Of a DNA stretch of 64,000 bases, positions 42,388 through 60,878 are shown piece by piece. Under the pieces are notes generated by a model. It worked only from the letters and a program-made list of their open reading frames with translations, was not told the DNA's origin and searched no databases. Source of the stretch: Treponema sp. (GTDB taxonomy: Bacteria; Spirochaetota; Spirochaetia; Treponematales; Breznakiellaceae); assembly GCA_031279975.1 (NCBI GenBank), contig JAITHL010000131.1, forward strand, positions 1,505-65,504, given 5' to 3'. Numbering within the stretch: the first letter of the stretch is position 1; each line of letters begins with the position of its first letter. Both the position numbers and the translations under genes were made by a program.

Positions 42388-42468
42388 GAAAACCACTATA
42401 ACGAGGTCTTAGGCGGTTCCGCAAGGCCGGACTTGCCCCAAGGGGCGGTTTTTCAGTACATTCAAACG

Positions 42469-43227
42469 ATGCGTTTTTCTTCCCTTCCGCGCCTTTTACC
42501 AGTTCTGGTTTTACTGCTCCTGGGGGGCTGCGGGACCATAAACCGGAGCCGGGACGCCATGGGCATACCCCGGATGGCGGTGGCGTTCAGTTTTGATGAC
42601 GGCCCCAACGGCGAGGGCGATACCACGGCGCGGCTCCTGGATGTGCTGCGGAAATACCAGGTCCGCGCCCTGTTTGCCCTTTTGGGGGAAAACGCCGGGC
42701 GGTACCCGGAACTGGTCCGGCGGATACGCGATGAGGGGCATGTGATCATCAACCACGGCTATGCCGATACCTGGGCGGTCTTTATGGGACCCCAGGCGTT
42801 CAAGGCGAACCTCCTGCGGGGGGAGGCGGCAATCAGCGCCGCCCTGGGGGAAGGGCTGAACCCGAAACTATACCGGCCCCAGGGCGGCTATTACCGGCCC
42901 GGGCAGCGGAATATCTGGCGGGCCGAAGGGTATACCCTGGTTCCCAGCAGCGCCCGGGTCTATGACGCGGTGAGTCCAGGGGGCGCGAAGGACAAGGTGG
43001 TTAGGGGGATACTCAAGAAAATACAGGACGGCGGTGGCGGGATGATACTGCTCCACGACGCCCGGGATTCCCACAACCGCATGGACCGGGAACTGGCCGC
43101 GGACCCGGAGGGAAGTTTTAACCGGGCCTGGATTCCCGAAGCGGTTGAGGAACTACTAAGGGAACTGATCCAGCGGGGATACCAGGTAAGCGGCCTTGAT
43201 CCCCTGGATTTCCGGCCCCGGCGGTAA
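42469..43227 (+). CDS. NodB-type polysaccharide deacetylase lipoprotein
   Basis: ATG 42469 gives MRFSSLPRLLPVLVLLLLGGC (lipobox LLGGC). FSFDDGPN, ...INHGYAD, ...LLHDA. Confidence 0.8.
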   Translation: MRFSSLPRLLPVLVLLLLGGCGTINRSRDAMGIPRMAVAFSFDDGPNGEGDTTARLLDVLRKYQVRALFALLGENAGRYPELVRRIRDEGHVIINHGYADTWAVFMGPQAFKANLLRGEAAISAALGEGLNPKLYRPQGGYYRPGQRNIWRAEGYTLVPSSARVYDAVSPGGAKDKVVRGILKKIQDGGGGMILLHDARDSHNRMDRELAADPEGSFNRAWIPEAVEELLRELIQRGYQVSGLDPLDFRPRR

Positions 43228-43232
43228 GGCCG

Positions 43233-43892
43233 GTGAGCCTTTCCCCGGGGAAAATGTTTTTGCTGGGCCTGTCCCTGTCGAACCGGCGGCGGCCCTACGC
43301 GGCGCAGCACCGGGAAGGCAGGCGCATCCTCGATCTCTTGGACCGGGAAAACCAGGGAAGCGGGGGCGGGGATTTGCGGATTGAGGCATCGGGGAGGCCT
43401 GTTTTCGCGGACCGCCACGCGGATTTCAGCATATCCCATTCACGGGGGGCGGCGGCGGTTTCTTGCCTCGCCGTTCCCGGCTGGCCGGGCCTCCGCACGG
43501 GCTGCGATATTCAATACGCCTCGCTTTCCCGGCCCTGGGAGCCGCTGGCGGCCCGGTTCTTTGATCCCGCTGAACAGGGGTATATCGCCGCCGCCCCGGA
43601 CAGCCGGGGAAGGGCCGCGCGGTTTTACCATATCTGGGTCTTAAAAGAGGCATTCCTCAAACTGCGGGGCCTTTCTGTAACGGATGTGGCGGCGGCAACG
43701 GTCTTTTCGGCGGGTACGCCGGGGCTCCGGTTCTTCCTCTACGAACTCCGCCTGGGGGATTGGTCCCCTTACGCCCTCGCGGCGGCCGCGGAGTTCCCTC
43801 CTGCTTGCGCGGACCTGGGGGAGCCGGAATTCCGCTGGTTTTCCCAAGAGCGGGCGGGCCTTGCCCCGGTTGTTTTGCCGCGATTTCCGTGA
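43233..43892 (+). CDS. Sfp-type 4'-phosphopantetheinyl transferase
   Basis: FSISHSRGAAAV ... FYHIWVLKEAFLKLRG (W/KEA motif). The start is GTG 43233 or ATG 43254. Confidence 0.75.
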   Translation: MSLSPGKMFLLGLSLSNRRRPYAAQHREGRRILDLLDRENQGSGGGDLRIEASGRPVFADRHADFSISHSRGAAAVSCLAVPGWPGLRTGCDIQYASLSRPWEPLAARFFDPAEQGYIAAAPDSRGRAARFYHIWVLKEAFLKLRGLSVTDVAAATVFSAGTPGLRFFLYELRLGDWSPYALAAAAEFPPACADLGEPEFRWFSQERAGLAPVVLPRFP

Positions 43893-43925
43893 AGGCGGCG
43901 CTCCAGGGCGGGAAAAGCGCGAATA

Positions 43926-44723
43926 TTACCGGATTTCCCGGCCCAGGGGCCGGAACAACGCCTCTTTTATCTTTTCGTTCATTTGTTTGGCCGCCCCTTG
44001 GCAGGGCAGGCCCGCATAAGTTTCCGGGCTGATCTCTTCCAGCATACAGAGCTCATAGCGGTAGGTTTCGGTATGGTTGTAGGCGGTCCACGGGTCTTTC
44101 TTGCCCAAGCCCCACTTGTCGTTGCCGCCGATCCGCACTGGAACCACCGGCCTGCCCGTCAGCAGGGAGAGCCGGGCCGCGCCTTTTTGCACCCTGATGG
44201 GGCCGGAGCGGGGGGTTCTGGTCCCCTCAGGGAAAATCACCAGGCAGTTTCCCTGGGCCAGGGAGCCGGCGCACCGGGCGGACAGCTCCTCAAAATTAAG
44301 GGAATTGGGGATGTATAACTGTTTAATAACGCCCTGGACCAGGTTGCGCAACAGGGCGGCGTTTACAATGCAGTCCGCGTTGGGGATCAGGGAGACGAGC
44401 ATCACAATGTCCAGCAGGGAGGGGTGGTTCGCCACAAGAATCTTGCCCCGCAGCCGGCCAAAGGCTTCCCGGTCCGCTGTTTCCAGCCGCGCCACTCCCA
44501 GCAGGTCCATGAATCCCACAAGAAAGCGGAATCCCGCGGTAATGGTCCGCCGGCCCCGGCGTTTGAAGTCCTCCGCGGTCCGTGAAAAGAGCCGCTGGAC
44601 CGGAAACACAAGGAAGATTAGGCCCAGGGTTCCCGCTCCAAAAACCAAGAAACTCAGCCATTTCGCCGCGACCCGCCAGCAATAACGGGGATAACTGCGT
44701 ATGGGCGGCATATACTCCGGCAT
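43926..44723 (-). CDS. lysophospholipid / 1-acyl-sn-glycerol-3-phosphate acyltransferase family (LPLAT)
   Basis: N-terminal TM helix. VANHPSLLD (HX4D) and IFPEGTRT motifs. Confidence 0.85.
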   Translation of the reverse strand: MPEYMPPIRSYPRYCWRVAAKWLSFLVFGAGTLGLIFLVFPVQRLFSRTAEDFKRRGRRTITAGFRFLVGFMDLLGVARLETADREAFGRLRGKILVANHPSLLDIVMLVSLIPNADCIVNAALLRNLVQGVIKQLYIPNSLNFEELSARCAGSLAQGNCLVIFPEGTRTPRSGPIRVQKGAARLSLLTGRPVVPVRIGGNDKWGLGKKDPWTAYNHTETYRYELCMLEEISPETYAGLPCQGAAKQMNEKIKEALFRPLGREIR

Positions 44724-44813
44724 AAGGATTCCCTCTGTAAAATACCATGGGGCTATTTCGCGCCCCTGTCAATGCTACTGTCAACAATTTAAGAAAACAG
44801 GCGGGGTCTCTGC

Positions 44814-44953
44814 TTATGGGGGGTCTGGGGGGCCTTTCGGCCTCCCAGCGGGGGTTCTGGGGGCGGCGCCCCCGTCCCGCGCAGGCGATTGAAGCGGAAA
44901 GCGCGGTTTTTGCGGAGCAAAAACGCGCCCAAAAGTTTATACGCGCTGGCCCT
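44814..44953 (-). repeat. second copy (inverted, one end truncated) of the 159-bp MITE-like element
   Basis: The reverse complement aligns with 3268-3408 with 7 mismatches by eye, mostly transitions. It lies in the divergent promoter region between the LPLAT and the first ACP gene. Confidence 0.7.
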
Positions 44954-45006
44954 GCTTCCCCGGGCCCTGGGCATTGACCTTGCGGCTCTTTCTAGAGTAA
45001 ATTCTA

Positions 45007-45291
45007 ATGATGGTTGATCTGAAGGGTTTGAAATCGGAGATTAAGGAACTCATTGTTGCTAGTTTGGAGCTTGAAGACCTCATGCCGGAACAGATTAGCG
45101 ATGCCGGGCCGCTGTTTGGAGCCGGTCTGGGGCTGGATTCGATAGACGCGCTGGAACTCGGCCTTGCCTTGAAAAAACGTTTTGGGGTTACCTTTTCATC
45201 GGACAACGAGGAAAACAAAAGGCATTTCGGGTCGGTGGACGCGCTGGCGGCCTATATCGCGGAGAAAACCAGAGAGGAGCGCGGGGGATGA
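45007..45291 (+). CDS. acyl carrier protein 1
   Basis: 94 aa. GLGLDSIDALEL phosphopantetheine-attachment motif. Confidence 0.85.
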   Translation: MMVDLKGLKSEIKELIVASLELEDLMPEQISDAGPLFGAGLGLDSIDALELGLALKKRFGVTFSSDNEENKRHFGSVDALAAYIAEKTREERGG

Positions 45292-45533
45292 CCAAGGAAG
45301 AGCTGTTTGCCAAAATACAAGAAACGCTGGTGGAGAAATTTGAGATTGAAGCGGAGCGGGTGAGGCCGGAAGCCCTGCTATATGAGGAGCTTGAGCTGGA
45401 TTCAATCGACGCGGTGGACCTTATTGTGGAAATGAAGCCCTACATCCCCGGTAAAATCGAGCCTGATCTTTTCAAACAGACAAAGACCGTGCAAGACGTG
45501 GTTGAGGCGTTGTTTCCCCTGCTGGAGTCGTGA
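45288..45533 (+). CDS. acyl carrier protein 2
   Basis: 81 aa. ELELDSIDAVDLI. ATGA overlap with ACP1. Confidence 0.85.
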   Translation: MTKEELFAKIQETLVEKFEIEAERVRPEALLYEELELDSIDAVDLIVEMKPYIPGKIEPDLFKQTKTVQDVVEALFPLLES

Positions 45534-47377
45534 AAAAAAAACTCCGCTTTGCCCTGAGCTTCCTGGCCGCCCCGGCGGCGGCCTTGCTCTGCTTCAGGTT
45601 TAAGGGGCTGGCCCCGGCAAAGTGGTACCCGGTCGCCGTGAGCGGCGGGATGTTCTTCCTGTTCGCGGGGAGCTTCCTGCGGCCCCCGGTGATTATTTTC
45701 CGCTTCGCCCTGAGAATGGACCGGACCATTCGGGGATCAGGGAGGGAAAAGCCAGTAGAACGGTACTGCCGGAAGGTAACGCTCCTCTGGTGCGCCTTTT
45801 TCCTGGTGAACGGCGGCATAGCCGCGGCAACGGTCTTCCAGTCAAACGGGGCATGGCTGCTCTATAACGGGTGTATTTCATACATCCTGATGGGAATTTT
45901 ATTTTTAGGAGAATTTATGGTACGCCAAACAGTTGATAAGAATCTGCGCCGGGAAAACGGGCCGCCGGGAGTTCCCGGGGAGCTTCCCATTTCCCGGTTT
46001 ACCCCCGCTTCGCGTCCAGCGGATGCCATACTCTGCTACGACGGCGCGTATGCCGATGGAAAGTACCAGACGTGGCGGGACTTTCTCCGGGATACCGCCC
46101 TGCTTCGGGCCGCCATAGCCCCGTCGCCCCAGACCCGGTGGATACTCTATGCCGACGACTACTGGCATTTCCTCACCGCCTTTGTGGCCCTCCTTCAATG
46201 CCGGAAACAGCCCCTCCTTCCGCCCAGTACGGCGGCGGCCCTTATCGCCGGGATTGCCGGGGAGGGCGGCGCGGCGGCGCTCAGCGACCAGGATATCCCC
46301 GGCGCGGTATCCATCCCCCAGACCCTCGCCGCTTCCGGCGAAGCGCCGTCGGCGGAGCATATCCCCATCAACCCGGTGGAGTCGGTCTTTATGATCTACA
46401 CATCGGGGTCCACGGGAAAACCCAAGGGTATTCCCCACCGGCTGGTGGAATTTGAAGTAGACATTGGCTTTCCCCCTGAGTGGGTGGCGGCTTGGCGGGC
46501 CCGCAAAAACGCGGTTACCGTGAACCAGCACCATATCTACGGTCTCGTGTTTTCCATTATCCTGCCCTTTACCCTGGGCGTACCCTTCCGCCGGAAACGC
46601 CTTGAGCGGCCTGAGGAATTGCCGGCCCTCGCCGATACGCCCTACATGATCTTCACCAGCCCGGCCTTCCTCAAACGGGCGGTGGAAAGCGGCCTGGATG
46701 CCAAGCTGCGGGACCCGTGGATTGTGGCCTCCGGCGGGTTCCTGCCCCAGGAGATCGCGGAAAAGACCAGCCGTGTCTTGGGGGCCTGGCCCATTGACAT
46801 CTACGGCAGTACCGAAGGATCCGGTATCGCCTGGCGGCAGTCCAAAGACGGCCCCCAGTGGCGGCCCTTCAGCAGCATCAAGGTTTCCACCAATGAGGCG
46901 GGCTGTTTGGTTATCCACCTGCCCTTCCCCAATGTCCCCCCCATACCCACCGGGGATTTGGCCGAGGTTTTGAGCGACGGCCGGTTTATACTTAAAGGGC
47001 GGGCGGACTCCATTGTTAAAATAGAGGAGAAGCGGGTTTCCCTTACGGAAGTGGAAGCGCGGATTATGGAATCCGGCCTGGCCCAGGACGCCGCGGTAAT
47101 TCCCCTGGAAGACCGGCGGCAGTACCTTGCCGCCGCAATCGTCCTCTCCAGCGAGGGCAAGGAGCGGTTTGCCGGGAAAGAAAAACATGAAATCAACCAG
47201 TTCTGGACCGGGTATCTCCAGGGATACTTTGAGGGGGCGGTAACGCCGAAGAAATGGCGGTATGTGGAGCGCCTGCCGGAGGACGCCCAGGGCAAGAAAC
47301 AGCGGGCCGAAATCGAGGCCCTGTTCGCCCCCGGCGCCCTGGATGACGCGCCAGGGGCGGGGGGCGGCGGTGTTTGA
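45530..47377 (+). CDS. membrane domain fused to an AMP-dependent synthetase/ligase (adenylating enzyme)
   Basis: The first ~150 aa contain about 4 TM helices. Then come YTSGSTGKPKGIPH, IYGSTEGSG and GDL...KGRADSIVKIEEKRVSLTEVE (adenylation core motifs). Confidence 0.85.
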   Translation: MKKKLRFALSFLAAPAAALLCFRFKGLAPAKWYPVAVSGGMFFLFAGSFLRPPVIIFRFALRMDRTIRGSGREKPVERYCRKVTLLWCAFFLVNGGIAAATVFQSNGAWLLYNGCISYILMGILFLGEFMVRQTVDKNLRRENGPPGVPGELPISRFTPASRPADAILCYDGAYADGKYQTWRDFLRDTALLRAAIAPSPQTRWILYADDYWHFLTAFVALLQCRKQPLLPPSTAAALIAGIAGEGGAAALSDQDIPGAVSIPQTLAASGEAPSAEHIPINPVESVFMIYTSGSTGKPKGIPHRLVEFEVDIGFPPEWVAAWRARKNAVTVNQHHIYGLVFSIILPFTLGVPFRRKRLERPEELPALADTPYMIFTSPAFLKRAVESGLDAKLRDPWIVASGGFLPQEIAEKTSRVLGAWPIDIYGSTEGSGIAWRQSKDGPQWRPFSSIKVSTNEAGCLVIHLPFPNVPPIPTGDLAEVLSDGRFILKGRADSIVKIEEKRVSLTEVEARIMESGLAQDAAVIPLEDRRQYLAAAIVLSSEGKERFAGKEKHEINQFWTGYLQGYFEGAVTPKKWRYVERLPEDAQGKKQRAEIEALFAPGALDDAPGAGGGGV

Positions 47378-47717
47378 GGAGAAACTCCTCCAGCGCTCCG
47401 GCTCCAGCGCGGTGGTGGAATTCCGCGTTCCCCCGGAAAGCCCCTATTTTGACGGCCATTTTCCAGAGTGTAAGATACTCAGCGCGGCGGCCCAGGTCGC
47501 TATTATCCTGCGCCTTGCCGGATGCTATCTTACCGGCGGCCGTGCCGCGTCGGGGATAAAAAAACTCAAATTTACCAAAATAATACAACCCGGTGTTCCT
47601 ATCCGGCTTGAACTTGCCTGGGACCAAAATGCCGGGACCCTTTCCTTCAAAATGCTGGCTACGGAAGGGGGATGCCGCTATGCTTCCGGCTCTATGACTA
47701 TGGGGGGAAGGGGGTAA
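47370..47717 (+). CDS. hot-dog fold (FabA/FabZ-like) dehydratase 1
   Basis: PESPYFDGHFPECKILSAAAQV. GTG 47370 overlaps the ligase stop. Confidence 0.7.
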   Translation: MFEEKLLQRSGSSAVVEFRVPPESPYFDGHFPECKILSAAAQVAIILRLAGCYLTGGRAASGIKKLKFTKIIQPGVPIRLELAWDQNAGTLSFKMLATEGGCRYASGSMTMGGRG

Positions 47718-48487
47718 TGTATGGGGCGCCTTTCACAAGGCCCTGCGTTATTATCCCCGTGTACAACCACGGCGAAACCCTAGACCCGGTTATTACCGCC
47801 ATTCGGGAGGGGATCGATATCCCCATTATTCTCATTGATGACGGCAGCGATGCTGAAACAAAGCGCTGTTTGCAAAACGCGGTTTCGGCCCGCCAGGGCC
47901 TTACCCTGATCGGCCTGACGAAAAACAGCGGCAAGGGCGCGGCGGTGATGCGGGGCATTGACGCGGCCCGGGAATTGGGATTTACCCACGCCCTACAGAT
48001 TGACGCCGACGGCCAGCACGACGCGGGGCGGATACCCTTTTTCCTTGCCGAGGCGGCGGCCCACCCGGAAGCGGTCATCTGCGGCCTCCCCCGGTTTGAC
48101 CGGTCGGCCCCCGCAAGCCGGCTCTGGGGCCGTAAGATCAGCAACGGCTGGGCGAAGATCGTTACCCTTTCCAAGGCCCTGCCGGATGTGCTTTGCGGCT
48201 TCCGGGTCTACCCGGTGGAGCCCTTCTGGGCTTTGGCCCATTTCCGCCCTATCAACCGGCGCATGGGTTTTGACACGGAAATCCTGGTCCGGCTCTACTG
48301 GCAGAACATTCCAGTCCGGTTCTATCCCCTTAGGGTGATCTACCCTGAAAACGGGAGGTCCCATTTTCGCCTGGTCCGGGACAACCTCCACATTGCCTGG
48401 ACCTTTACCCGGCTCTTCTTAGGGATGATCCCCCGGTTGCCGGCCCTCCTGAACCGGCGGCGCGTCCGGGGGGGGGGAGCGGCGTGA
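47717..48487 (+). CDS. family 2 glycosyltransferase
   Basis: CVIIPVYNHGETL...ILIDDGSDAET...LQIDADGQHD. TAATG overlap with the dehydratase. Confidence 0.85.
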   Translation: MYGAPFTRPCVIIPVYNHGETLDPVITAIREGIDIPIILIDDGSDAETKRCLQNAVSARQGLTLIGLTKNSGKGAAVMRGIDAARELGFTHALQIDADGQHDAGRIPFFLAEAAAHPEAVICGLPRFDRSAPASRLWGRKISNGWAKIVTLSKALPDVLCGFRVYPVEPFWALAHFRPINRRMGFDTEILVRLYWQNIPVRFYPLRVIYPENGRSHFRLVRDNLHIAWTFTRLFLGMIPRLPALLNRRRVRGGGAA

Positions 48488-49449
48488 AACCGGACCGCCG
48501 CCATTGGGCCAGCCAGCCGGAGCTCGCCCGGTCCTACTGGCAATTCAAGGCGCTCATCGCCATGGTACGGCTCCTGCCCCTGGGCGTCCTCATCTGCTGC
48601 GCCTTTCCCATTAGTTTTTTCTATTATTTTTTGGCCAAGCGGGCCCGGCGGGAATCCCGGCGCTTTCTTGACGCGGTGAACGCCCAGTTACCGGAGGGGA
48701 AGCGCCGTTCCGTATACCGGCACTTTGCCTCCTTTGCGATATGCCTGGTGGAAAAAGCGGCGGCCTGGGGGGGGCGGATAAACGGCGGGATGATCCGGTA
48801 TCAGGATGACGCTATTGGGTCCCTGGTGGAGGACATCAATGGCCAGAAGGGGGCCTTCCTCCTCTGTTCCCACCTGGGGAACGCGGAGATGCTCCGGGCG
48901 CTGGCGGATTTCGGCCGTACCCGTGCGGGCCGCGCTTTTCCAGTGGTTTCGATTGTTGATTACTCCATGGCCGAACAGTTTGGCCGGATGCTCCGGGAGA
49001 TCAACCCTGGCTCCATGGACCATCTTATCAGCGCCCGGAACATCGGCGTTGAAACCATGGGGCGGCTTGAGGAATGTCTGGACCGCGGGGGCCTGGTGGT
49101 GAGCGCCGGGGACCGGACCGCCCCCGATGGGGGCCGGAACCGCCGTTTTCTCATTGAATTTCTCGGACGCCCCGCGCCCTTTCCCGTGGGGTCCTTCTAT
49201 CTTGCCTCGCTTTTAAAGCGGAATGTGTACTTTGTTTTTGCCCTCAGAAGGAAGACCTTTTCCCTGGCCTGCGAATATGATTTCCATGTCATTAAGAGCG
49301 GCGTTGATTTTAACTGCCCCCGGCGGGAACGGGAAGCGCGGATGGAGCGCCTTGCCCGTTCTTACGCGGAAACCCTGGAACAACTATGCAAAGTATACCC
49401 CTATCAGTGGTACAATTATTATGATTTTTGGGAGGCCCCGGATGGGTAA
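48484..49449 (+). CDS. LpxL/HtrB-like lipid A biosynthesis-type acyltransferase
   Basis: N-terminal TM helix. LLCSHLGNAEML (HX4E), VVSAGDRT. GTGA overlap. Confidence 0.7.
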   Translation: MKPDRRHWASQPELARSYWQFKALIAMVRLLPLGVLICCAFPISFFYYFLAKRARRESRRFLDAVNAQLPEGKRRSVYRHFASFAICLVEKAAAWGGRINGGMIRYQDDAIGSLVEDINGQKGAFLLCSHLGNAEMLRALADFGRTRAGRAFPVVSIVDYSMAEQFGRMLREINPGSMDHLISARNIGVETMGRLEECLDRGGLVVSAGDRTAPDGGRNRRFLIEFLGRPAPFPVGSFYLASLLKRNVYFVFALRRKTFSLACEYDFHVIKSGVDFNCPRREREARMERLARSYAETLEQLCKVYPYQWYNYYDFWEAPDG

Positions 49450-49888
49450 AACTGAAGCGTGTAAAATCATAGTGGAAACCGAGTTTAAGGTGGAGTTTTA
49501 CGATGTGGACCTGATGGGCATTGTCTACCACGGCAACTATCTCAAGTACTTTGAGGTGGCCCGCTGGGCGCTGCTTGAAAAAATACGGTACACCTACGAT
49601 GATATGGCGGCCTCAGGGTGTAGTTTTCCCGTTACCTCGGTTGCCTTGAAGTACCTGAAGCCCCTGCGCTTTAATGACCGGGTGCGGGCCCGGGCCATCC
49701 TGGAGGAATACGAAAACTGCCTCAAGATACGTTACGAGCTGTACAACGCCAGGACCGGGGAGATGACCACCAAGGGACAGACTACCCAGATGGTCTTTAA
49801 CGTCTTAAAAAATGAGTCTTCCTTTGTATGCCCCCGGTCCTTAATCGAAAAGGCCGAGTCCCTGCTCGCTTCTGAGGCCGGGCGGTGA
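49442..49888 (+). CDS. 4HBT/YbgC-like acyl thioesterase
   Basis: VEFYDVDLMGIVYHGNYLKYFEVARWALLE. ATG 49442 after GGGAGG. Confidence 0.8.
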   Translation: MGKTEACKIIVETEFKVEFYDVDLMGIVYHGNYLKYFEVARWALLEKIRYTYDDMAASGCSFPVTSVALKYLKPLRFNDRVRARAILEEYENCLKIRYELYNARTGEMTTKGQTTQMVFNVLKNESSFVCPRSLIEKAESLLASEAGR

Positions 49889-50547
49889 GCGCGCCTTGCG
49901 GACGCCGCTTCGCCTGGGCGCTTATGCTTTCCCTGGCCGCTTCCCCCGCGGTCTTTGGGGAAGCGGTGTTTTCCAGCCCCCTGACAGAGGCTGCGAAACC
50001 GCGTTTCCTTTCCCTCTGCGCCGATCTGTCCGCCCGTCCGGTGATCCGCGGGAGCTTTGAGCTGAGGCGGGCGGTTAAAAAGCTGGACCGGGTTATGGTT
50101 TCTTCCGGGAACTTTATCATCAGCGCGGAACACGGCATTATCTGGGACACGAAAAAACCCTTTCCCTCCACGATGACAATGGGCCGGGACTTTATCAGGC
50201 AAACCACGCCTGATGGAAGCGGGTCCGCGCTGTCCGCCCAGGGAAACGAGACCTTCCTGCGTTTTTCCGAGGTCATGCGGGCGCTCTTTACGGGGAATCC
50301 GGCCAAACTGTTGAGCGGCTTCCAGGCGTACTTTACCGAATCCCCGTGGCATTGGGAACTGGGCCTCATCCCGCGGGACGCCGTAATCCAGGGCTTTATC
50401 GAGCGGATCGCCATGAACGGCGAGGGGGGCCTTATCCGGGGCATAACCGTCTTCCAGAGGAACGGGGATGCGGCCTCCTATGCCTTTTCCGGCCAGCGGT
50501 TCGAGGGCCTCAGCCCCCAGGAGCGGGAGCTTTTCAATGGGGACTGA
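49885..50547 (+). CDS. LolA-like outer-membrane lipoprotein-carrier family protein (secreted)
   Basis: Signal peptide (FAWALMLSLAASPAVFG/E). F.L.R.....DRVMVSSGNFIIS...GIIWDT. Its position matches the LolA-like gene of APE-type clusters. Confidence 0.55.
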   Translation: MSAPCGRRFAWALMLSLAASPAVFGEAVFSSPLTEAAKPRFLSLCADLSARPVIRGSFELRRAVKKLDRVMVSSGNFIISAEHGIIWDTKKPFPSTMTMGRDFIRQTTPDGSGSALSAQGNETFLRFSEVMRALFTGNPAKLLSGFQAYFTESPWHWELGLIPRDAVIQGFIERIAMNGEGGLIRGITVFQRNGDAASYAFSGQRFEGLSPQERELFNGD

Positions 50548-50585
50548 ATTGGCGGGAGGCCCCTCCCTATCCCCTGGGTGCGCCT

Positions 50586-52931
50586 ATGGGTAAGGGGCTG
50601 CCGCTCTGGCTGGGTTTTCATGGGGCCCTGGCCCTGCTCTTGGGGGCTTCCCTGCTGTTCGCCTCGCCTCTGGGGTTCAACACGGACCTCCTGGACATCC
50701 TGCCCCCGGCCAGGGGCGGGGAATTACTGGCGCAGGCTGCGGACAAGGTATTGACCGAACGGAGCGCCCGGCAGATCACCGTGCTGGCGGCCCATCAGGA
50801 CTTTGCGGCGGCCCGCCGGGCCGGGTCCCGGCTCTATGCGGCCCTGGCGGGTTCGCCTTTTTTTGAAAGCCTCTCCTTCGAGACGGACGCCGATGCGTCT
50901 TCCGCGCTTGCCGCCTTCTTCCACGCCTACCGGTATGCGCTTTTGGACGAGGAAACCGCGCTGCTCCTAGAGTCCGCCCAGGCCGGCGCGGTCGCCCGGG
51001 ACGCCCTGGCAAATGCCTACGGCATGTTCACCCTGAGTTCCCTTGATACGCTGGAAACAGACCCCTTTCTCCTGGGGGAGCGGAACATGCGAAGCCTCCT
51101 CGCCTCGCCGCTTTTTACCATGGGGGCGCTCTCCCCCCGGGACGGGGTGCTCTGCGCTGAACGGGACGGGCGCTGGTTCGTCATGCTCCGGGGCGCGGTA
51201 AGCGCGGCGGGGTCCGCGTTTTCCCACCGGGAAAACGCCGTTACCCTGATTTACGCCGCGGCCAAAGACGCCGCGGCGGGGGAGGGCGGCGGGGCCTTCT
51301 ATTTTTCCGGGGCACCCTTCCATACCTTTGAAAGCGCCTCGGCCACCCGGAAAGAGGTAGCCCGTATCTCCGCCCTTTCGCTGCTCCTGGTGGCGGCCCT
51401 CTTTGTTTTGGTTTTCCGTTCCCTCCTGCCCGCGGCCCTGTCTCTGGCGGCGGCCCTCCTCTCCATCGGGACTGCCCTGGCTGGCTCGCTGCTCTTTTTC
51501 CGGGAACTGCACCTCATCACCCTGGTTTTTGGGACCGCCCTTATCGGAACCAGCCTGGATTACTCAATCCACTATTGCGTCCTCCGGTACCGGGGCGGCC
51601 TTGAGGGCCCTGCGGTCCGGGAACGGATTGGCCGGGGGATCGCCCTGGGTTTTGCCTCTACTGAAATCTGTTTTCTCCTCCTCCTCTTCGCGCCCTTTGC
51701 CATACTAAAACAGTTCGCCCTGTTTTCCCTGTTCGGGATGGCCTCCTCCTATCTTACCGTGACGCGCCTCTACCCCCTGTTGCCGCTTCGGGTCAAGAAC
51801 GCCGTTTTTGCTCCCCGGCGTATCCGGCGCGGCGCGCGGGCCGGTATCTTGGCCGGACGGATCATCCTCGCGGTCCTGGCGCTTATAGCCGGGGGCTTTG
51901 CGTTCCTCAACCGGGAGAAGCTCGCCGTTCATAACGACATCCGCGGCCTCTATACGGCGCCGCCCTTTTTGGCGGAACAGGAACAGATCGTTTCCCAGAC
52001 CCTGGATTACGGGGCATCCCCCCAGTATTTCCTCGTGGCGGGGGCCTCGGAACAGGAAACCCTGGAACAAGAGGAGGCCCTCCGCGCCTTGTTGGACCGG
52101 GAGATCGCGGAAAAACAGCTCCGCTCCTTCGTGGCGGTTTCGAGCGTTATCCCCCCGTTGCGGCGGCAGGAGCGGAACCGCGCGGCCGCGGCGAAGTTGC
52201 TCCCCCTCGCGGCGGGGCAGTTTGCGGCCCTGGGCTTCCCGCCTGACGCGGCGGAGGCGTTTATCGCGGATTTTGAGCGGGAAGCGGGGCGGCGCCTCCG
52301 GCCCTCAAGCGAAATGCCCCGGTATTTCAAGGACCTCCTTGAAAATCTCTGGATAGGCGAACTGGGGGGCCGTTACTATTCCTGCGTACTCCTCATCCGT
52401 CCTGAAGGGGATGGCGGAAGGTTCCGGCAAATCGCCGCCGGCCTTGAGGGGGTGTACTTTGTGAACAAGGCCGGCGGCGTCGGCGAAAACCTGGATGCCC
52501 TCACCGGCCTCCTGTTGAAGCTCTACGGCGCCGCCTATCTGGCCGTCCTTGTTTTGGCTAAATGCTTTTATCCCTGGCGGGATGTCCTCAGGATCGGCAT
52601 ACTTCCGCTACTGCTGGCGCTGGCCTGCGCCTCGGCCTTGATCCTCGCGGATATTCCGGCGGGCTTTTTCCCGGTCTGCGCCTTTCTCCTGGTTTTCGGG
52701 CTGGGGCTTGATTACAGCTTCTACTGTTTGGAAAATAAAAGGCGTGGAAACCACGGGGCGGGAACCCTGGCTGTGGCGCTTTCTTTTTTGACCACCCTCC
52801 TTTCCTTTGGGGCCCTGGCTTTCAGCGGTTTTACGCCGGTGCGTGTTTTCGGCTTGGTGATAGGCGCGGGCCTCTCCACAGCCTTTGTTTCAGCGCTTCT
52901 TTTAGGGGGCGGCGCGCATGACCCGCGGTAG
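50586..52931 (+). CDS. MMPL/RND-superfamily lipid exporter
   Basis: 781 aa with two blocks of about 6 TM helices separated by soluble domains. ATG 50586; the ORF-track extension overlaps the LolA-like gene. Confidence 0.75.
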   Translation: MGKGLPLWLGFHGALALLLGASLLFASPLGFNTDLLDILPPARGGELLAQAADKVLTERSARQITVLAAHQDFAAARRAGSRLYAALAGSPFFESLSFETDADASSALAAFFHAYRYALLDEETALLLESAQAGAVARDALANAYGMFTLSSLDTLETDPFLLGERNMRSLLASPLFTMGALSPRDGVLCAERDGRWFVMLRGAVSAAGSAFSHRENAVTLIYAAAKDAAAGEGGGAFYFSGAPFHTFESASATRKEVARISALSLLLVAALFVLVFRSLLPAALSLAAALLSIGTALAGSLLFFRELHLITLVFGTALIGTSLDYSIHYCVLRYRGGLEGPAVRERIGRGIALGFASTEICFLLLLFAPFAILKQFALFSLFGMASSYLTVTRLYPLLPLRVKNAVFAPRRIRRGARAGILAGRIILAVLALIAGGFAFLNREKLAVHNDIRGLYTAPPFLAEQEQIVSQTLDYGASPQYFLVAGASEQETLEQEEALRALLDREIAEKQLRSFVAVSSVIPPLRRQERNRAAAAKLLPLAAGQFAALGFPPDAAEAFIADFEREAGRRLRPSSEMPRYFKDLLENLWIGELGGRYYSCVLLIRPEGDGGRFRQIAAGLEGVYFVNKAGGVGENLDALTGLLLKLYGAAYLAVLVLAKCFYPWRDVLRIGILPLLLALACASALILADIPAGFFPVCAFLLVFGLGLDYSFYCLENKRRGNHGAGTLAVALSFLTTLLSFGALAFSGFTPVRVFGLVIGAGLSTAFVSALLLGGGAHDPR

Positions 52932-52932
52932 G

Positions 52933-53511
52933 ATGAACAAAAACCTCCTTCTCCCGATCCTCTGCGTTGCGGCCCTATGCGGTTCCTGCGGGAGCCTTGG
53001 GGTGAAACGGCAAAGCGCCACGGCCCCGGTCTATTGGTATGGCAGCGCTCCATACCGGCTTCTTCCCCCGGACCGTATTGAAAAGCCGATAGACATGGCG
53101 CAGCAGATCGCCGGTGTCTACGGGGAAACCGCGTTTCTGGCGGACGCCCTGGTGGTCGCCACGGAACAGGGCCTTACGGTGGTCCTGTACGACGCTTGGG
53201 GGACAGAGCTGGCGGCCCTTTCCTTTGACGGCAAAACCGCCGTCTTTGAATCCGCCTTCTTCCCCGCGCTCAAGGGGGAGTATATGATTGCCGATTTTCA
53301 ACTGGTCTTCTATGCCGTGAAGGACCTTGAGAAGGCGCTGGGAGCGGCGGGGCTGGGCCTTGAGGTAGGCCGGGGGGATGGCGCCGTGGAAAAGCGGACG
53401 GTAAAATGGAATAATGAAATCATTATTGAAATAACCAAGACCCCCGGTGCGATATACTATGTGAACCATCCACGGAATTACCGTTATACCCTGCGAGGTG
53501 CTTTTGAATGA
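52933..53511 (+). CDS. small lipoprotein (DUF3261-like position)
   Basis: MNKNLLLPILCVAALCGSCGS lipobox. Lies directly after the MMPL gene, as in APE-type clusters. Confidence 0.55.
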   Translation: MNKNLLLPILCVAALCGSCGSLGVKRQSATAPVYWYGSAPYRLLPPDRIEKPIDMAQQIAGVYGETAFLADALVVATEQGLTVVLYDAWGTELAALSFDGKTAVFESAFFPALKGEYMIADFQLVFYAVKDLEKALGAAGLGLEVGRGDGAVEKRTVKWNNEIIIEITKTPGAIYYVNHPRNYRYTLRGAFE

Positions 53512-53990
53512 TAGAGCGGACAGAACTGTTAGACCTGGTACCCCATAAGGGGAAGATGTTGCTCCTTTCCCGGATTACCAGCTATGATCTGGAAAAGTGG
53601 ACCATACACGCGGAGTTTGACAGCGATGCGTCCTGTCTATTCTACGATCCCCTGCTGGGCGGCGTTCCCGCCTGGGTAGGTTTTGAATGCATAGCCCAGG
53701 CGGTTTCCGCCCTGTCAGGATTGGCGGCCCGTCACGCCGGGAGGCGGCCCAACATCGGTATTATCCTGAGCGTCGCCAACCTGGAGGTAATCCGCCCGGT
53801 TATTCCCCCGCGGGCCTTTATAAACGCTACGGAGTGCGCCCGGCTTGAGGCGGTACGGGTCTTTAACGGCGCCGTGTACGCGGAAGACCAGGCGGGCCGC
53901 GGCCTTGCCGCCCGGGCCAGGCTGACGGTTATGGAGGTTGAGCGGTTTCAAGACCTCTTGCCCAAGGGAGGAGTTCATGGGACAAATTGA
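53508..53990 (+). CDS. hot-dog fold dehydratase 2
   Basis: LVPHKGKMLLLSRI...VPAWVGFECIAQAVSAL. ATGA overlap. Confidence 0.65.
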   Translation: MIERTELLDLVPHKGKMLLLSRITSYDLEKWTIHAEFDSDASCLFYDPLLGGVPAWVGFECIAQAVSALSGLAARHAGRRPNIGIILSVANLEVIRPVIPPRAFINATECARLEAVRVFNGAVYAEDQAGRGLAARARLTVMEVERFQDLLPKGGVHGTN

Positions 53991-54717
53991 TCAGGCGGGG
54001 AAAAAAGTGTTGGTTACCGGGGCAAGCCGGGGCATCGGCAGGGCCATAGCCCTGGCCGTCTCACGGGCGGGGTATAGTTTAGCGGCCTGTTACCGCCAGA
54101 GCGAGGAAGCGGCCCTGGCTTTGCGGGAGGAGGTTCTTTCCGCTGGCGGGGAAATTGAGCTGCTGCGTTTTGATATCGCGGACCGGGAATCATGCCGGGA
54201 AAACCTGGAACGCTGGGTCAAGGAAGGGGGCGCTCCCTGGGGGATCGTGTGTAACGCCGGCGTTCACGCGGATAACGCCTTCCCTGCCTTGCGCGATGAT
54301 GACTGGGACCGGGTGGTACACACCAATCTTGACGGCCTGTTCAACGTGCTGCGCCCCCTGTTCATGCCCCTGGCCCGGAAAAAGCGGGGCAGGATTATCG
54401 CCCTCGCCTCGGCGTCCGGCATTACCGGCAACCGGGGGCAGGTGAACTACAGCGCCGCCAAGGCGGGGATTATCGGGGCCGCTAAAGCGCTGGCGGTGGA
54501 ACTGGCGAGCCGTTCCATCACGGTAAACTGTATTGCCCCAGGGGTTATTGAAACGGACATGGTAAAGGACGCGCCCTTGGACGCGCTGCTCCCCCAGATA
54601 CCCCTGGGCAGGCTAGGACGGGCTGAAGAGGTCGCCGCCTTGGCGGTGTTTCTCCTCTCTGAAGATGCCGCGTACATCACCCGGCAGGTTATTTCGATAA
54701 ACGGCGGATTGGTATAG
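53977..54717 (+). CDS. fabG: 3-oxoacyl-ACP reductase (SDR, FabG-like)
   Basis: VLVTGASRGIGRAIA, NAG, SASGITGNRGQVNYSAAKAG (S-Y-K triad). ATG 53977 after GGGAGGAG. Confidence 0.88.
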   Translation: MGQIDQAGKKVLVTGASRGIGRAIALAVSRAGYSLAACYRQSEEAALALREEVLSAGGEIELLRFDIADRESCRENLERWVKEGGAPWGIVCNAGVHADNAFPALRDDDWDRVVHTNLDGLFNVLRPLFMPLARKKRGRIIALASASGITGNRGQVNYSAAKAGIIGAAKALAVELASRSITVNCIAPGVIETDMVKDAPLDALLPQIPLGRLGRAEEVAALAVFLLSEDAAYITRQVISINGGLV

Positions 54718-54727
54718 GGGGCGGCCA

Positions 54728-55960
54728 GTGCGAAGACGAGTCGTAGTTTCAGGCGGCGGGGTGGTAAGCGCCCTGGGGAACGAATGGCCCGCAATCCTCT
54801 CGGCCCTGCGGAGGGGGCGCAACTGCGTCCGCCGTATGGACGAGTGGGATATATACCCTGGGATGAATACCCGCCTTGCGGCGCCGGTGGATTACCAGTT
54901 TCCTCCCTATCCCCGTAAGAAAACCCGCGGCATGGGCCGGATATCCCTGCTGGCCCTGTCATCCGCCGAAGGGGCGGTTAAGATGGCGGGCCTTGCGGAG
55001 GACGGACGGGCCTCCCCCCTGCTCACGAGCGGCCGTACTGGCATCGCCTATGGCTCCTGTATGGGGAGCGTTGACGCGCTGATGGATTACTATGCCATGC
55101 TGGTTCTCAACGACGTAAGGAAGATAAGCGCCACCACCTATGTGCGCTCCATGCCCCAGACCTGCGCCGCGAATCTGGAAGTGTTTTACGGCCTTACCGG
55201 CAGGCTTATCACCGCCAACGTCGCCTGCGCCTCCGGCAGCATGGCCGTTGGCCTGGCCTACGAGACTATCAAAAGCGGCAAACAGGATATTATGCTGGCC
55301 GGGGGCGCCGATGAGCTGTCGCCGGTGGACGCGGCGGTTTTTGATGTGCTCTTTGCCGCCAGTACCAAGAACGACGCGCCCGGTCTGACCCCCGCGGCGT
55401 ATGACAAGAACCGGGACGGCCTGGTGGTGGGGGAAGGAGCGGGGACGCTCATTTTGGAGGAGTATGAACACGCCCTGCGGCGGGGCGCGCCGGTCTACGC
55501 TGAAATCGCGGGCTTCGGGACCAACACTGACGGGGTCCATATCACCCAGCCGAACCGCGCAACCATGTCCCGGGCTATTGCCCTGGCCTTGGAAGACGCG
55601 GGCCTCAGCCCCGATGCCATCGGCTATGTGAATACCCACGGTACTGGCACCGGCGCGGGGGATGCCGCCGAAAGTTGGGCCACCTATGATATTTTCCAGC
55701 GGCCTGTTCCGGTAAGCACCATCAAGAACTACACCGGCCACACCCTGGGGGCTTGCGGGGCGCTTGAGGCGTGGATTTCGATTAACCTGATGCGGGAAGG
55801 CTGGTTCGCCCCGAACATCAACCTGCGGGAACTCGACGGCGGCTGCGCCCCCCTGGACTACATCACCGGAGCGGGCCGGGAACTGGAAACCGCCTATGTG
55901 ATGTCCAACAATTTTGCCTTCGGCGGCGTCAACACGAGCCTGATTTTAAAACGCCTGTGA
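54728..55960 (+). CDS. beta-ketoacyl-ACP synthase (FabF/FabB-type, Cys-His-His)
   Basis: ANVACASGSMAV (Cys), NTHGTGTGAGD (His), YTGHTLGACG (His), NNFAFGGVN. Confidence 0.9.
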   Translation: MRRRVVVSGGGVVSALGNEWPAILSALRRGRNCVRRMDEWDIYPGMNTRLAAPVDYQFPPYPRKKTRGMGRISLLALSSAEGAVKMAGLAEDGRASPLLTSGRTGIAYGSCMGSVDALMDYYAMLVLNDVRKISATTYVRSMPQTCAANLEVFYGLTGRLITANVACASGSMAVGLAYETIKSGKQDIMLAGGADELSPVDAAVFDVLFAASTKNDAPGLTPAAYDKNRDGLVVGEGAGTLILEEYEHALRRGAPVYAEIAGFGTNTDGVHITQPNRATMSRAIALALEDAGLSPDAIGYVNTHGTGTGAGDAAESWATYDIFQRPVPVSTIKNYTGHTLGACGALEAWISINLMREGWFAPNINLRELDGGCAPLDYITGAGRELETAYVMSNNFAFGGVNTSLILKRL

Positions 55961-58900
55961 TTAGAAACTGACCTGGAGGGAGGTCCCGATGGCGCCGGTG
56001 AAGGAATACACCGGGGAATCGTAGTACTGGGCGCAGCTTAGTTTGGCAAAGACGGACCAATTGAAGCGTCCCAGTATCCTGATAATAGATTCATGCCCCA
56101 GGGTAAAGGCCGTTCTCAAGACATCCTGGGAAGATTCGATGGTTGCTTCGAGGGTTTCTTTGCGCAGACGCTCAAACGCCGTATTCGCCAAATGCGACAA
56201 GGCTGGCCAGGCGCTCATGTCCCGCGCCTTATCGCTTAACCAGATATAGAGTATGCCGAGCAGGGATTGGGGCGCCGGGGCGGTCCAGGCAATTTCCAGG
56301 CTTTCCACCCGGGAATCGGCGGTAAGGGTAAGGGTGTTCGTGAGGGTAAACTCCGCGCCGGTAAAGCCGTAAATGCTCAGGAGCAGTTCATCCTGAAACC
56401 GCCATGTAAGGGCATCGTTTCTGGGAAGGGCAAGGGAGCCTTCAAGCCGGTGGGTGAATTCATCCTGATAAAAGCTGAAGACCGGCATATATCCGAAGGC
56501 CCCCCAGAGGTTAACCGAGTTGAAGGTTAAGGCCGAAGCGATGGTAAAGACATCCAGACGGGTATCCAGCTTTCGTTCCAGATTGCGGGAAAGTTTTGTT
56601 TCGATGTGCCGGGGAATCCAGAGGGTCTTGAGGCCGAAGGCGTCAGGAAGTCTGAGGGAAACCTGAAAGGCGTCGGTAAAGCGCCCGTATTCGGTGATAT
56701 CCGCCGCTGCTGCTTCGGAAAGGGCGTTCTCCATAGTATCCTCCAGGGCGGGGGCGAAAAGGGAATAGAAGGGTAGGGAAACCCAGAGATTTCGGGAATC
56801 CCAGAGGCTTTCATAGTACCGGCTTCCGTCTTCCAGGGCGTCGGCGCTGGGGTAAAAAACGCTCCGTTTAAAGCTCCGTTCTCCCCGGAGGAGGCCCTGG
56901 TATTCGCCGAAGGCAAAGGGGAAGTCCAGGCGGCCTAGGGTTTCGGACCGGGCGGTATTAGCGGGCGCTGAAAACCCCGCCGCGCCGTCAGCGGAAAACT
57001 CAATGCCCACGGGCTTTAAGGCCAGGGGGACCTTCAAAATCCCTTGGAATTGGCGGTTCTGGGCGTCCCGTCCGGAATCGGGGAGGAGGGGTTTCCAACT
57101 GTTAAGCCAGGCTTCGGCATACCGGTCAAGCCCCGCCGGCCCTTCCCCCGGCTTGGACAAGAGGGCGTTCCCCTCTATCGACGCGCCGAGAACCCTGTCC
57201 GGACCGGGCTCCACGAGCGCGGAAGCCTGCCAGTATCGCTCGAATTTGGTATCCGTATACCGGGCCGTTCCGGTAAGGCGGGACCGTATCGGCCCGGCGA
57301 GGTTCAGATCAAGACGGTGGGTAAGGGCCTTATCATCCGGGGAAAGGGCGAAGAGTTCGTGGAACCGGAAGGGGCCCCAGGAACGGGAAAGTTCGTGGCC
57401 CCCGTTCCAGAAGAGCGCATTCGGGGCGGCGGAGAGGGAGTAATTCCCCTGTAGCCGGGCCCCGAGGAGGGTCAGTTCCCCATAGGACCGGGTAACGGTT
57501 CCATAGGAGGGTTTCCCGGCGGGATTGGTAAAGGGATCGCCCTGAACTACTCCTTCCAGGGCGGCGCGGAGGGTAATATCCCCAAGTATGGGCCGGTTCT
57601 GGAAGGCGATGAGCGCCCCGGGATGGGCCCATGCAACGGCGGCGCCGGCATTTAAACCGTAGACCGGGCTAGACGTTTCCAGGATGATCTCATCCAGGGA
57701 AAAGGACCCCGCCGGCAGGGCGGCGCCGTGGTTTTCAATAAAAAACGCCGCATACGCGGCCTGTTCCCCCTCCGCGCCTGGAACGCCGGAGTATGCGCCG
57801 GTTCTTTCCAGGACATCGGCTCGATAGCGCGCGGCGCTTTGGGGAATCCCATTGCCGTCCGCTGAAATTCCGGTTTCGCCGCCGTTGTAACGGATTTCGA
57901 TTTTCGACCATTCGCCGGCCTTAAATTGGGCCAGGGGAATACGGGCTTCCAAGGCGAGGTCTTGATCCGGCGCGTTGAGCGCGTCGGGGCCGCGTCCGAT
58001 AAGCACCCGGAGGGCGGCGTTTTGAAAATTTGCCGGTTCCGCCGCGCTGAGGGGGGGCTGGGGGGCTTTGAAGAAAAAACTCAGGACCTGGTACTTCGAG
58101 AGGGGGATTGCGCCGGTTCGCCCGTCCGCGCCGGGGGCCTCGCCGTTGTCCAGGTTGTTCCAGGCAACCTCAAGCGTCCGTTGGATCGCGCCGCCGGGAT
58201 GCAGTTTGTTCAGCATATCCCCATAGCGGCCCCCCAGCGCGGCGTCGATTTTTTCCACCGCGGATACGGATTTTAATCCCCCCTGATCCGGCGCGGCTTT
58301 GATAGTTGTATCCGTAACCACTATGGGCCTGAAACCCGCTCCGGTAACAACGGGCGCCGCGAGCAGGAACCGTCCGTTCACGTCATCGGCCTCCTCACGC
58401 AGGATCACTACGCGCAGATACCGGGCGCCCTGGAGCCGGCGGCGGTCCTCATCGGTTAGGATGATCCGTCCGATTTTCCGCGCATCCCCGGCATCCTCAT
58501 AATGGGCGGGATAGATTTCCCGGGCCGCAATCAAAGAGGGGTTTTCGCGGTCTGCGGTATCCGGATCGCCCAGGGCTCCCAACTGGATGAGTACCCGGAC
58601 CCGGGGGCTTCCGCTTCCGGGAACCAGCGGATCAAAACCGTAGAACCGGAACGGGACGGCTATTTCCTGGGCCTGTTCGAGGAGGCTCCCCTCTATCCCC
58701 AGGGGGACCTGAAAGCCGGTCCAGGTTTTGCCGTTCCCCAGGGCGAATTCCGCGGCCAATAAGACATCCTGGGATACCGCGGCATCTGTAACCGGGTAGG
58801 GTCCGGTTTGTCCGGGAACCACCGGCCCGTTGGATTCTATGCCGCCGATAGAAGCGCCCAGGATATCCCGTTTTTGATAGTCCCGGTAGATTAAATCCGC

Positions 58901-60835: not shown

Positions 60836-60878
60836 TAATAGAACAACTCGATAAGGCTCCCCAAAGAGCATTGGGTAT

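Follow-up and report, generated by a model that had tools for sequence, protein, structure and literature searches.

A pruned aryl polyene gene cluster with a single ketosynthase in a Treponema genome

Aryl polyene (APE) clusters of model organisms need a ketosynthase-chain length factor (KS-CLF) pair for their chromophore (PMC8253772). In a 64,000-nucleotide stretch of a Treponema metagenome-assembled genome (MAG; contig JAITHL010000131.1), hereafter the window, a group of genes at positions 43233-55960 resembles an APE locus arranged around only one KS, and we asked what kind of cluster this is and what it could make. The answer towards which we lean, without holding it firmly, is that it encodes a streamlined, still functional APE or APE lipid (APEL) pathway, which arose from a full spirochaete version by loss of ApeO-ApeC, its elongating KS-CLF pair, and of ApeB, its ring methyltransferase.

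Gene content and class of the cluster

The open reading frames (ORFs) between 43233 and 55960 were all recovered by ORF listing and translation. They comprise 13 co-directional ORFs on the forward strand (45007-55960) and, upstream of these, a divergent lysophospholipid acyltransferase (LPLAT) and an Sfp-type phosphopantetheinyl transferase (PPTase). A preliminary description of the locus had counted 14 same-strand genes; the co-directional run was as described, and the count is 13, with the membrane protein and the adenylase forming one 615-aa ORF. The consecutive GenBank numbers MDR2500628-MDR2500640 agree with the 13 same-strand ORFs. Pfam and NCBIfam scans confirmed the domain calls for all cluster ORFs, and the sequence motifs quoted at first can be read in the translations. 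The host is a spirochaete, as had been supposed. The LPLAT is 100% identical to MDR2500627.1 (MAG: Treponema sp.), six more window proteins match entries among MDR2500628-639 exactly, and the ApeI-type dehydratase matches MDR2500631.1 save for its start call. Independent support for a spirochaete host comes from two tandem FlaA genes on the forward strand (10445-11179 and 11194-11910; PF04620), whose product forms the outer layer, or sheath, of the periplasmic flagellar filament in spirochaetes.

We compared the 18 proteins of an annotated E. coli APE cluster (L081) with a six-frame translation of the window using phmmer. ApeD, E, F, G, H, I, J, K, L, M, P, Q, and R each had one syntenic counterpart in the same order, the two halves of ApeJ matching two adjacent, overlapping ORFs for a family-2 glycosyltransferase (GT2) and an acyltransferase. 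The pairing with E. coli Ape proteins is one-to-one for 12 ORFs (the LPLAT and 11 of the same-strand set), at E-values between 6e-06 and 3e-140; ApeN was identified by the Pfam DUF3261 family alone and not by the E. coli search. Judged from these alignments, the correspondence with ApeD-ApeR is far beyond chance. The APE-specific families matched were ApeI-like, ApeP-like, DUF3261, LolA2_flexi, FabG2, NF006617, NF003757, and NF006587. Both the collinearity and the profile searches bear out the APE-family content that had been read from motifs. The gene order given in the preliminary description is correct for the window itself but not as the canonical order it was taken for, since it omits ApeO, which usually lies between the lipoprotein and the second dehydratase.

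No counterpart of E. coli ApeA, ApeB, ApeC, or ApeO was found in the 64 kb by phmmer. Treponema ApeB, ApeC, and ApeO queries gave only chance-level tblastn matches in the same DNA, and searches for ApeC (PF13723) with the E. coli protein and three Treponema proteins returned nothing beyond chance at E<=10. The E. coli and Treponema ApeO queries matched only the ApeR gene in the window. Using the window's own sequences as phmmer queries, we found no second KS, ketoreductase (KR), dehydratase, or acyl carrier protein (ACP) in the six-frame translation. The rest of the window has no fatty acid synthase or polyketide synthase gene, ApeB-type methyltransferase, or aryl-starter gene. The earlier statement that the KS is single, with no CLF, methyltransferase, or aryl-starter enzyme on either flank, can thus be extended to the whole 64 kb. 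No enoyl reductase is present in the cluster, and no FabH, FabD, FabI/K, or Acc genes occur as partners in the window.

The sole KS of the window (54728-55960, forward strand) is an ApeR-type homodimeric enzyme. It scored 594.6 bits on NF006587 (cutoff 470) versus 194.5 bits on the ApeO model NF006618, both models having been calibrated as ApeR or ApeO type with E. coli ApeR and ApeO, and it matched E. coli ApeR at 2.9e-140. On the FabF model it reached 332.5 bits, under the cutoff of 493.75. The catalytic residues Cys167/His304/His338 are conserved, as are the aryl-stacking residues Tyr138 and Phe205 (equivalent to Tyr135 and Phe202 in A. baumannii ApeR). Residue 121 (approximately 55088-55090) is Tyr for Phe118 of A. 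baumannii ApeR; among the sequences aligned, Tyr occurs at this position only in the window and its sister genome. Of the other 13 ApeR sequences, 12 have Phe and that of T. ruminis has Met. The closest KS relatives are Treponema or Spirochaetaceae proteins with 71-64% identity. Treponema FabF-type KS genes in the related loci are only ~35-37% identical to the window KS and stand in other contexts. The KS also matched PDB entry 7f27 at 3.9e-130; the match is labelled 3-oxoacyl-ACP synthase, and we assume that this chain is the ApeR from A. baumannii reported in PMC8358021.

The operational definition of an ape biosynthetic gene cluster (BGC) by Grammbitter et al. (2020) uses apeO, apeR, apeE, apeF, apeC, apeI, apeP, apeQ, and apeM as core genes. 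The locus has ApeR, ApeE and ApeF, ApeI and ApeP, ApeQ, and ApeM; apeO and apeC are not found within the 64-kb window. Of the accessory genes, those for lipid anchoring and export (ApeD, H, J, K, L, N) are present and syntenic. The product that goes with this definition is a yellow aryl polyene with 6-7 double bonds on a membrane lipid; for the window, the literature on ApeR predicts a shorter chain (PMC8358021). Lacking two of the core genes, the locus is therefore classed here as an APE-family derivative and not as a full member. It would operate as the APE lipid pathway does, with a different capacity for building the chain. Compared with the apeA-apeR clusters of E. coli CFT073 and Xenorhabdus doucetiae, it agrees in families and in their order over the ApeD-ApeR part but is without ApeO, ApeC, ApeB, and ApeA; it joins ApeG and ApeH in one ORF, divides ApeJ between two overlapping ORFs, and has ApeD inverted. 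It also adds the Sfp-type PPTase, and possibly a deacetylase, and resides in a spirochaete.

Flexirubin and xanthomonadin clusters have in common with the window a LolA-like protein, an MMPL exporter, a FabG-type reductase, and ACP/KS logic, but the window gene order follows the E. coli type. Flexirubin models stayed under their cutoffs (FlxB, 264.9 bits versus 340; LolA2_flexi, 36.1 bits versus 125), and no DarA/DarB, tyrosine ammonia-lyase, XanB2, or halogenase was found in the window. Alterochromide biosynthesis, as described in PMC8358021, is alike in making a short aryl polyene with a homodimeric FabB/F-like KS in the absence of a KS-CLF. Alterochromides are, however, non-ribosomal lipopeptides without the ApeD/J/L/M/N anchoring and export set that the window has (PMC8358021).

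Full and pruned clusters in related genomes

Ape homologues were mapped on 160 loci, of which ~60 had the DNA upstream of ApeP visible. ApeO lay directly between the DUF3261 protein and ApeP in ~53 of these ~60, including the nearest Treponema loci with visible context. The ApeO-bearing Treponema or Spirochaetes loci include L002-L004, L007, L082-L084, L088-L091, L118, L168/L169, and L172 from cultured T. primitia; the exceptions are L106, L093, L076, and the minimal Treponema clusters L163, L165, and L167. ApeB-ApeC-ApeD units were seen in L007, L084, L168, and L171. Because ApeO and ApeB-ApeC-ApeD are kept in its relatives, we regard the window cluster as having been derived by pruning from a full APE cluster of spirochaetes, and the term 'reduced' chosen in the preliminary description is justified on the same grounds. 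The full spirochaete clusters (T. primitia L172, L168/L169, L084, L007) are the closest relatives (KS 60-71% and LPLAT 52-65% identical) and have in common with the window a split GT2 and acyltransferase, a cluster-borne PPTase, and domain fusions around ApeH. They keep ApeO between DUF3261 and ApeP as well as ApeB-ApeC-ApeD (in T. primitia only ApeC-ApeD was seen), whereas the window and its 92% sister keep neither.

This sister genome is an independent ENA assembly (SAMN10574009 / WAID19), in which contigs L162 and L173 cover window positions 46645-58223 and 42804-46069, respectively, with 92-95% identity in DNA. No paper on the sister sample turned up in a literature search. Both the ApeN-to-ApeP junction and the divergent ApeD/ApeE junction are common to the two genomes. 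At the former, the ATG of ApeP overlaps the stop codon of ApeN where ApeO usually sits (TTTGAATGATAG). An assembly artefact at this site was considered and rejected, the same junction being present in the independent assembly. Eleven genes could be compared between window and sister, with ratios of nonsynonymous to synonymous substitution (dN/dS) of 0.17-0.45 at a dS of 0.14-0.24. These genes have zero stop codons, and their in-gene indels are multiples of three with one exception, an 8-nt deletion (window 48473 versus L162 1067-2791) that fuses the GT2 and the acyltransferase in the sister into a 574-aa ApeJ-like protein, as in E. coli. The split form is found in the window and in most spirochaete or Fibrobacter relatives. 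Low dN/dS, intact frames, and common junctions speak against an assembly artefact as well as against decay; the pruned cluster is under purifying selection and is maintained.

A more extreme form of reduction was seen in three Treponema MAG contigs carrying minimal, ApeR-only clusters (L163, 1749-7003; L167, 266-5447; L165, 1184-4324). L163 and L167 each combine an ApeR-type KS and ApeP with a pair of ACPs, a 4HBT thioesterase, and an AMP-binding/ApeI fusion of 728-734 aa; the truncated contig L165 has one ACP, ApeP, a KR, and a KS, with fusion and thioesterase absent. The L163 KS is 67.7% identical to the window KS and scored 615 bits on NF006587. All three are without the GT, acyltransferases, LolA-like protein, MMPL exporter, and DUF3261 protein that the window has. 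L163 and L165 adjoin genes for an acetyl-CoA carboxylase carboxyltransferase and a biotin ligase, and the JGI sample and sequencing-run numbers of all three contigs neighbour those under which the sequence of the window itself is found. The minimal-cluster KSs form a separate clade in a neighbor-joining bootstrap analysis (numpy); the deep nodes of this tree lacked resolution, and we thus make no claim on whether ApeO was lost once or several times. No relatives were found when the MMPL protein served as query in a metagenome scan; the KS was used in its place.

Treponema APE clusters have so far only been listed in antiSMASH-style surveys (PMC8863827), and no spirochaete APE product was described in the papers we searched. 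APE clusters in general occur commonly in this genus, and what is unusual is the pruned form alone. A separate arrangement was noted in L086 (1914-4772, reverse strand), where a second module with ApeD, a deacetylase, an ACP, and an LpxL-like acyltransferase lies 3' of ApeR; this module was not seen in the window.

Proposed product and competing explanations

ApeR has variously been called an initiator, a 'booster', or dispensable, and the division of labour between ApeR and ApeO is debated. In published work, ApeO-ApeC alone makes the full-length polyene, and ApeR alone makes short species with up to ~3-4 double bonds and absorbance at 325-355 nm, its pocket being a dead end (PMC8358021). An E. 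coli apeR deletion strain keeps its pigment and main APE lipid and accumulates late intermediates (PMC8253772). ApeE receives the aryl starter from ApeH, and the malonyl units are borne by ApeF (PMC12624758). In Xenorhabdus the pathway ends in a glycerol-phosphate-GalNAc lipid to which the aryl polyene, a saturated acyl chain, and a conjugated C26:5 acyl chain are attached, which ApeD and ApeJ assemble and for which ApeM, L, N, and G are the proposed exporters (10.1101/2020.12.19.423268).

From the shown or proposed roles of the Xenorhabdus, E. coli, and Acinetobacter homologues, we infer a possible substrate, chain length, and localisation for the window pathway. The PPTase would convert ApeE and ApeF to their holo forms, and the H domain of the membrane-tethered ApeG-ApeH fusion would adenylate an aromatic acid (4-hydroxybenzoate-like) and load it on ApeE. 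ApeR, as the only condensing enzyme, would extend this starter with malonyl units from ApeF, with reduction by ApeQ and dehydration by ApeI/ApeP in each round. Because the ApeR pocket is a dead end that stops at ~3-4 double bonds in vitro, the chain would be expected to be a short, unmethylated aryl-oligoene absorbing near 325-355 nm and not a yellow hexaene. The split ApeJ (GT2 and LpxL-fold acyltransferase) would build a sugar-phosphate-glycerolipid anchor and attach the chain, ApeD would acylate the lysolipid, ApeK would edit or release, and ApeM, ApeL, and ApeN would carry the lipid to the outer membrane. The product is thus likely a short, unmethylated, UV-absorbing aryl-oligoene glycolipid. 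We propose only tentatively that ApeR works in vivo as a self-sufficient iterative KS and that a previously unseen product, a colourless, UV-absorbing short aryl-oligoene or conjugated-acyl sugar-phospholipid, results in the outer membrane. The idea of a short chain had been raised in the preliminary description and would fit the published biochemistry of ApeR (PMC8358021). The absorbance scan at 400-450 nm suggested with it would probably be negative; screens in that range would miss such a product, and 320-360 nm is the relevant range to look at.

Several points weigh against this interpretation. The chain-length limits of ApeR were measured in vitro for the Acinetobacter and Xenorhabdus enzymes only, and with Tyr at the Phe118 position the pocket of the window enzyme may differ. 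As the E. coli apeR deletion strain keeps its pigment, ApeR might naturally serve the conjugated fatty acyl moiety instead (PMC8253772). An aryl substrate for the adenylase is only proposed, and no 4-hydroxybenzoate-forming enzyme was found in the window. Above all, ApeO and ApeC could be encoded outside the 64 kb. Two of the domain assignments are marginal: ApeI scored 26.9 bits on PF22818, just under the cutoff of 28.5, and ApeP is under the curated cutoff for PF22817, a family precomputed for the 92%-identical protein P0001.

Some of these points bear on a non-aryl pathway, which we consider unlikely and yet the best of the alternatives. Here the adenylase would be a fatty acyl-ACP synthetase, and ApeR, ApeQ, and ApeI/P would make a short conjugated or 3-hydroxy acyl chain to be exported on a glycolipid. 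APE lipids do bear, beside the aryl polyene, a conjugated acyl chain that is not aryl and has ApeF as its presumed site of assembly (10.1101/2020.12.19.423268), and the aryl pigment kept by the E. coli apeR deletion strain is compatible with ApeR serving that other chain (PMC8253772). The absence of an aryl-starter gene from the window also fits, but canonical E. coli clusters are likewise without a starter-forming gene. ApeE with its glycine-rich motif and ApeH are moreover both kept under purifying selection, and ApeR retains its aryl-stacking Tyr and Phe, all of which counts against a non-aryl pathway.

It is rather improbable that the pathway is complete and canonical, with ApeO, ApeC, and ApeB at another locus and an ordinary long aryl polyene as the product. 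The window is 64 kb of a MAG, MAGs are incomplete, and ApeB-ApeC-ApeD already forms a separate transcription unit in spirochaetes, on either side of the main operon. In more than 50 related loci, however, ApeO always lies inside the operon between ApeN and ApeP, and ApeC adjoins ApeD; both sites are cleanly closed in two genomes ~8% apart in DNA. We also considered ten Treponema-MAG CLF proteins (from at least 120 Treponema ApeC matches), the accessions of which are all more than 100,000 away from MDR2500627-640. This distance is weak negative evidence on an ApeC elsewhere in the genome, with at least one further named match left out of the comparison.

A decaying, non-functional APE remnant would account for the loss of the two enzymes on which the chromophore of model organisms depends, and we judge it very unlikely. 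All 16 ORFs are intact and full length against their E. coli homologues, translational coupling is kept at 10 junctions, and the dN/dS values of 11 genes were obtained between two genomes with the same loss, free of stops or frame-breaking in-gene indels. That the locus is a set of ordinary housekeeping type II fatty acid synthesis (FAS-II) and lipid A genes is hardly credible: the KS, KR, dehydratase, and ACP folds are common to FAS-II and the acyltransferase has a weak LpxL Pfam match, but profiles and synteny refute this case, the KS prefers the ApeR model over FabF by a wide difference in score, the Treponema FabF-type KSs are distant and differently placed, order and content match ApeD-ApeR gene for gene, and FabH, FabD, FabI, and Acc are missing from the locus.

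If the streamlined APE pathway is real, then together with the minimal ApeR-only Treponema clusters it would show how the most widespread bacterial BGC family has been pruned in nature step by step. With its anchoring and export machinery intact, such a naturally ApeR-only cluster would be a test case for ApeR acting alone in vivo. It would also hint at an outer-membrane lipid yet to be characterised in Treponema, where lipids of the envelope are of importance in host interaction.

Individual genes and surrounding DNA

The nine start/stop overlaps reported in the preliminary description are all real when the junctions are read from the sequence. ATGA overlaps occur at 45288 and 53508, GTGA overlaps at 45530, 48484, and 49885, and a TAATG at 47717; GTG 47370 overlaps TGA 47375-47377, ATG 49442 overlaps TAA 49447-49449, and ATG 53977 overlaps TGA 53988-53990 (the ApeP/ApeQ junction). 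A tenth overlap, between ATG 52918 and TAG 52929-52931 (ApeM/ApeN), was absent from that list. Scanning 42000-46000 for promoters and terminators gave one promoter-like site, ending 4 nt before the ApeE ATG, versus 1.1 expected from shuffles, and we make no promoter claim.

Upstream of the operon, the first gene to consider is a polysaccharide deacetylase of the NodB/PgdA family (42313-43227, forward strand; PF01522, E=4.5e-23). It is a probable lipoprotein, with a signal peptide and LLGGC lipobox starting at Met53 (position ~42469). A homologue (3e-88) stands in one operon with ApeD in L086 (3193-3999), overlapping ApeD, and deacetylase lipoproteins also adjoin APE genes in sister contig L173 (2683-3117) and T. 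primitia L172 (12275-13063). The gene may be an accessory of the cluster, its membership being uncertain, and may serve to deacetylate an amino-sugar head group. The Sfp-type 4'-phosphopantetheinyl transferase (219 aa; 43233-43892, forward strand; Pfam ACPS, E=4.7e-11) presumably activates ApeE and ApeF. We count it as part of the spirochaete APE version because homologues are embedded in the spirochaete clusters L084, L118, L168, and L172.

The ApeD-type LPLAT (43926-44723; PF01553; E. coli ApeD 4.8e-32) is on the reverse strand, divergent from the operon, and carries the HX4D motif HPSLLD. As this LPLAT has more than 1500 homologues, we considered whether it could be a mere housekeeping PlsC, and rejected this; its nearest relatives with context lie in ApeC-ApeD or ApeB-ApeC-ApeD units, such as the 64%-identical homologue in the ApeB-ApeC-ApeD operon of L171.

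The forward operon opens with two ACPs, the ApeE-type starter ACP (45007-45291; NF006617, 96.7 bits, cutoff 70; E. coli ApeE 4.4e-26), which carries the glycine-rich motif GAGLGLDS, and the ApeF-type ACP (45288-45533; NF003757, 101 bits, cutoff 65; E. coli ApeF 3.8e-20). The following ORF (45530-47377; PF00501, PF13193) is an uninterrupted fusion of an ApeG-like, COG4648-like membrane domain (approximately residues 1-150) and an ApeH-type aryl/acyl-ACP synthetase. Both E. coli ApeG (6.3e-17) and ApeH (1.4e-56) match it, and it has the adenylase motifs YTSGSTGKPKG and YGSTEGSG; searching PDB with the sequence of the ApeH domain gave no APE-specific structure. The ApeI-type hot-dog dehydratase (47370-47717; motif YFDGHFP) matched the ApeI-like family PF22818 (E=6e-06) and E. 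coli ApeI (1.9e-08), and its gene call has the same length in L162.

The GT2 (47717-48487; PF00535, E=7.6e-19) corresponds to the N-terminal half of ApeJ, aligning to residues 6-246 of the E. coli protein (2.1e-81). Its nearest named NCBIfam model is NF058614 PpgS, a polyprenyl-phospho-GalNAc synthase (E=1.6e-11, far under cutoff). The LpxL-fold acyltransferase (48484-49449; PF03279, E=6.6e-05) is the C-terminal half, aligning to ApeJ residues 247-553 (3.3e-45), and has the HX4E motif HLGNAE and one N-terminal transmembrane segment. A role as lipid A acyltransferase LpxL/LpxM was rejected for this protein, which scored 16.1 bits on TIGR02207 versus a cutoff of 297.8.

Downstream are the ApeK-type 4HBT thioesterase (49442-49888; PF13279, PF03061; E. 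coli ApeK 2.8e-34) and ApeL, a secreted LolA-like carrier (49885-50547; NF053544 LolA2_flexi, E=4e-09; E. coli ApeL 2.1e-16), which also matched the LolA_3 family. ApeM is an MMPL/RND-type exporter (50586-52931, the start ATG at 50586 being inferred; PF03176; E. coli ApeM 3.7e-45 over residues 18-760). A hydropathy scan gave ~12 transmembrane-like segments, in keeping with the 12 first reported. ApeN, the DUF3261 lipoprotein (52918-53511; PF11659, E=1.2e-13), has a signal peptide with Cys residues and is thought to act like LolB. The ApeP-type dehydratase (53508-53990) matched PF22817 at E=1.4e-3 and E. coli ApeP at 6e-06. Its database homologues carry PF22817, and its sequence search of PDB gave no APE-specific structure. 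The last gene before the KS is the ApeQ or FabG2-type ketoreductase (53977-54717; motifs TGASRGIG and YSAAK; NF004200, 336.9 bits, cutoff 273), which matched E. coli ApeQ at 7.3e-84 and fell slightly under cutoff on TIGR01831 (326.6 versus 338.85 bits).

On the other side of the KS, a 1643-aa ORF without Pfam or NCBIfam match (55961-60892, reverse strand) has its stop codon abutting that of ApeR (55960/55961), with no spacer or terminator, and homologues of this ORF occupy the same position in L001 and in sister contig L162. A second long ORF without Pfam match (794 aa; 37619-40003, reverse strand) adjoins an SNF2-family helicase (39550-42396) and overlaps its long-ORF call. The window is otherwise core chromosome, with a dcw cluster, topA, xerC/D, hslU, fliFGHI, ligA, trmB, and two tRNAs. 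The dcw cell-division cluster (13146-21702) holds mraW, a Mur ligase, mraY, ftsW, ftsQ, ftsA, and ftsZ, and is followed by two XerC/D-type tyrosine recombinases (21699-22619 and 26572-27642) flanking a TPR protein and topoisomerase I. The tRNA-Tyr(GTA) and tRNA-Thr(TGT) genes (61065-61241, reverse strand) lie between the 1643-aa ORF and ligA.

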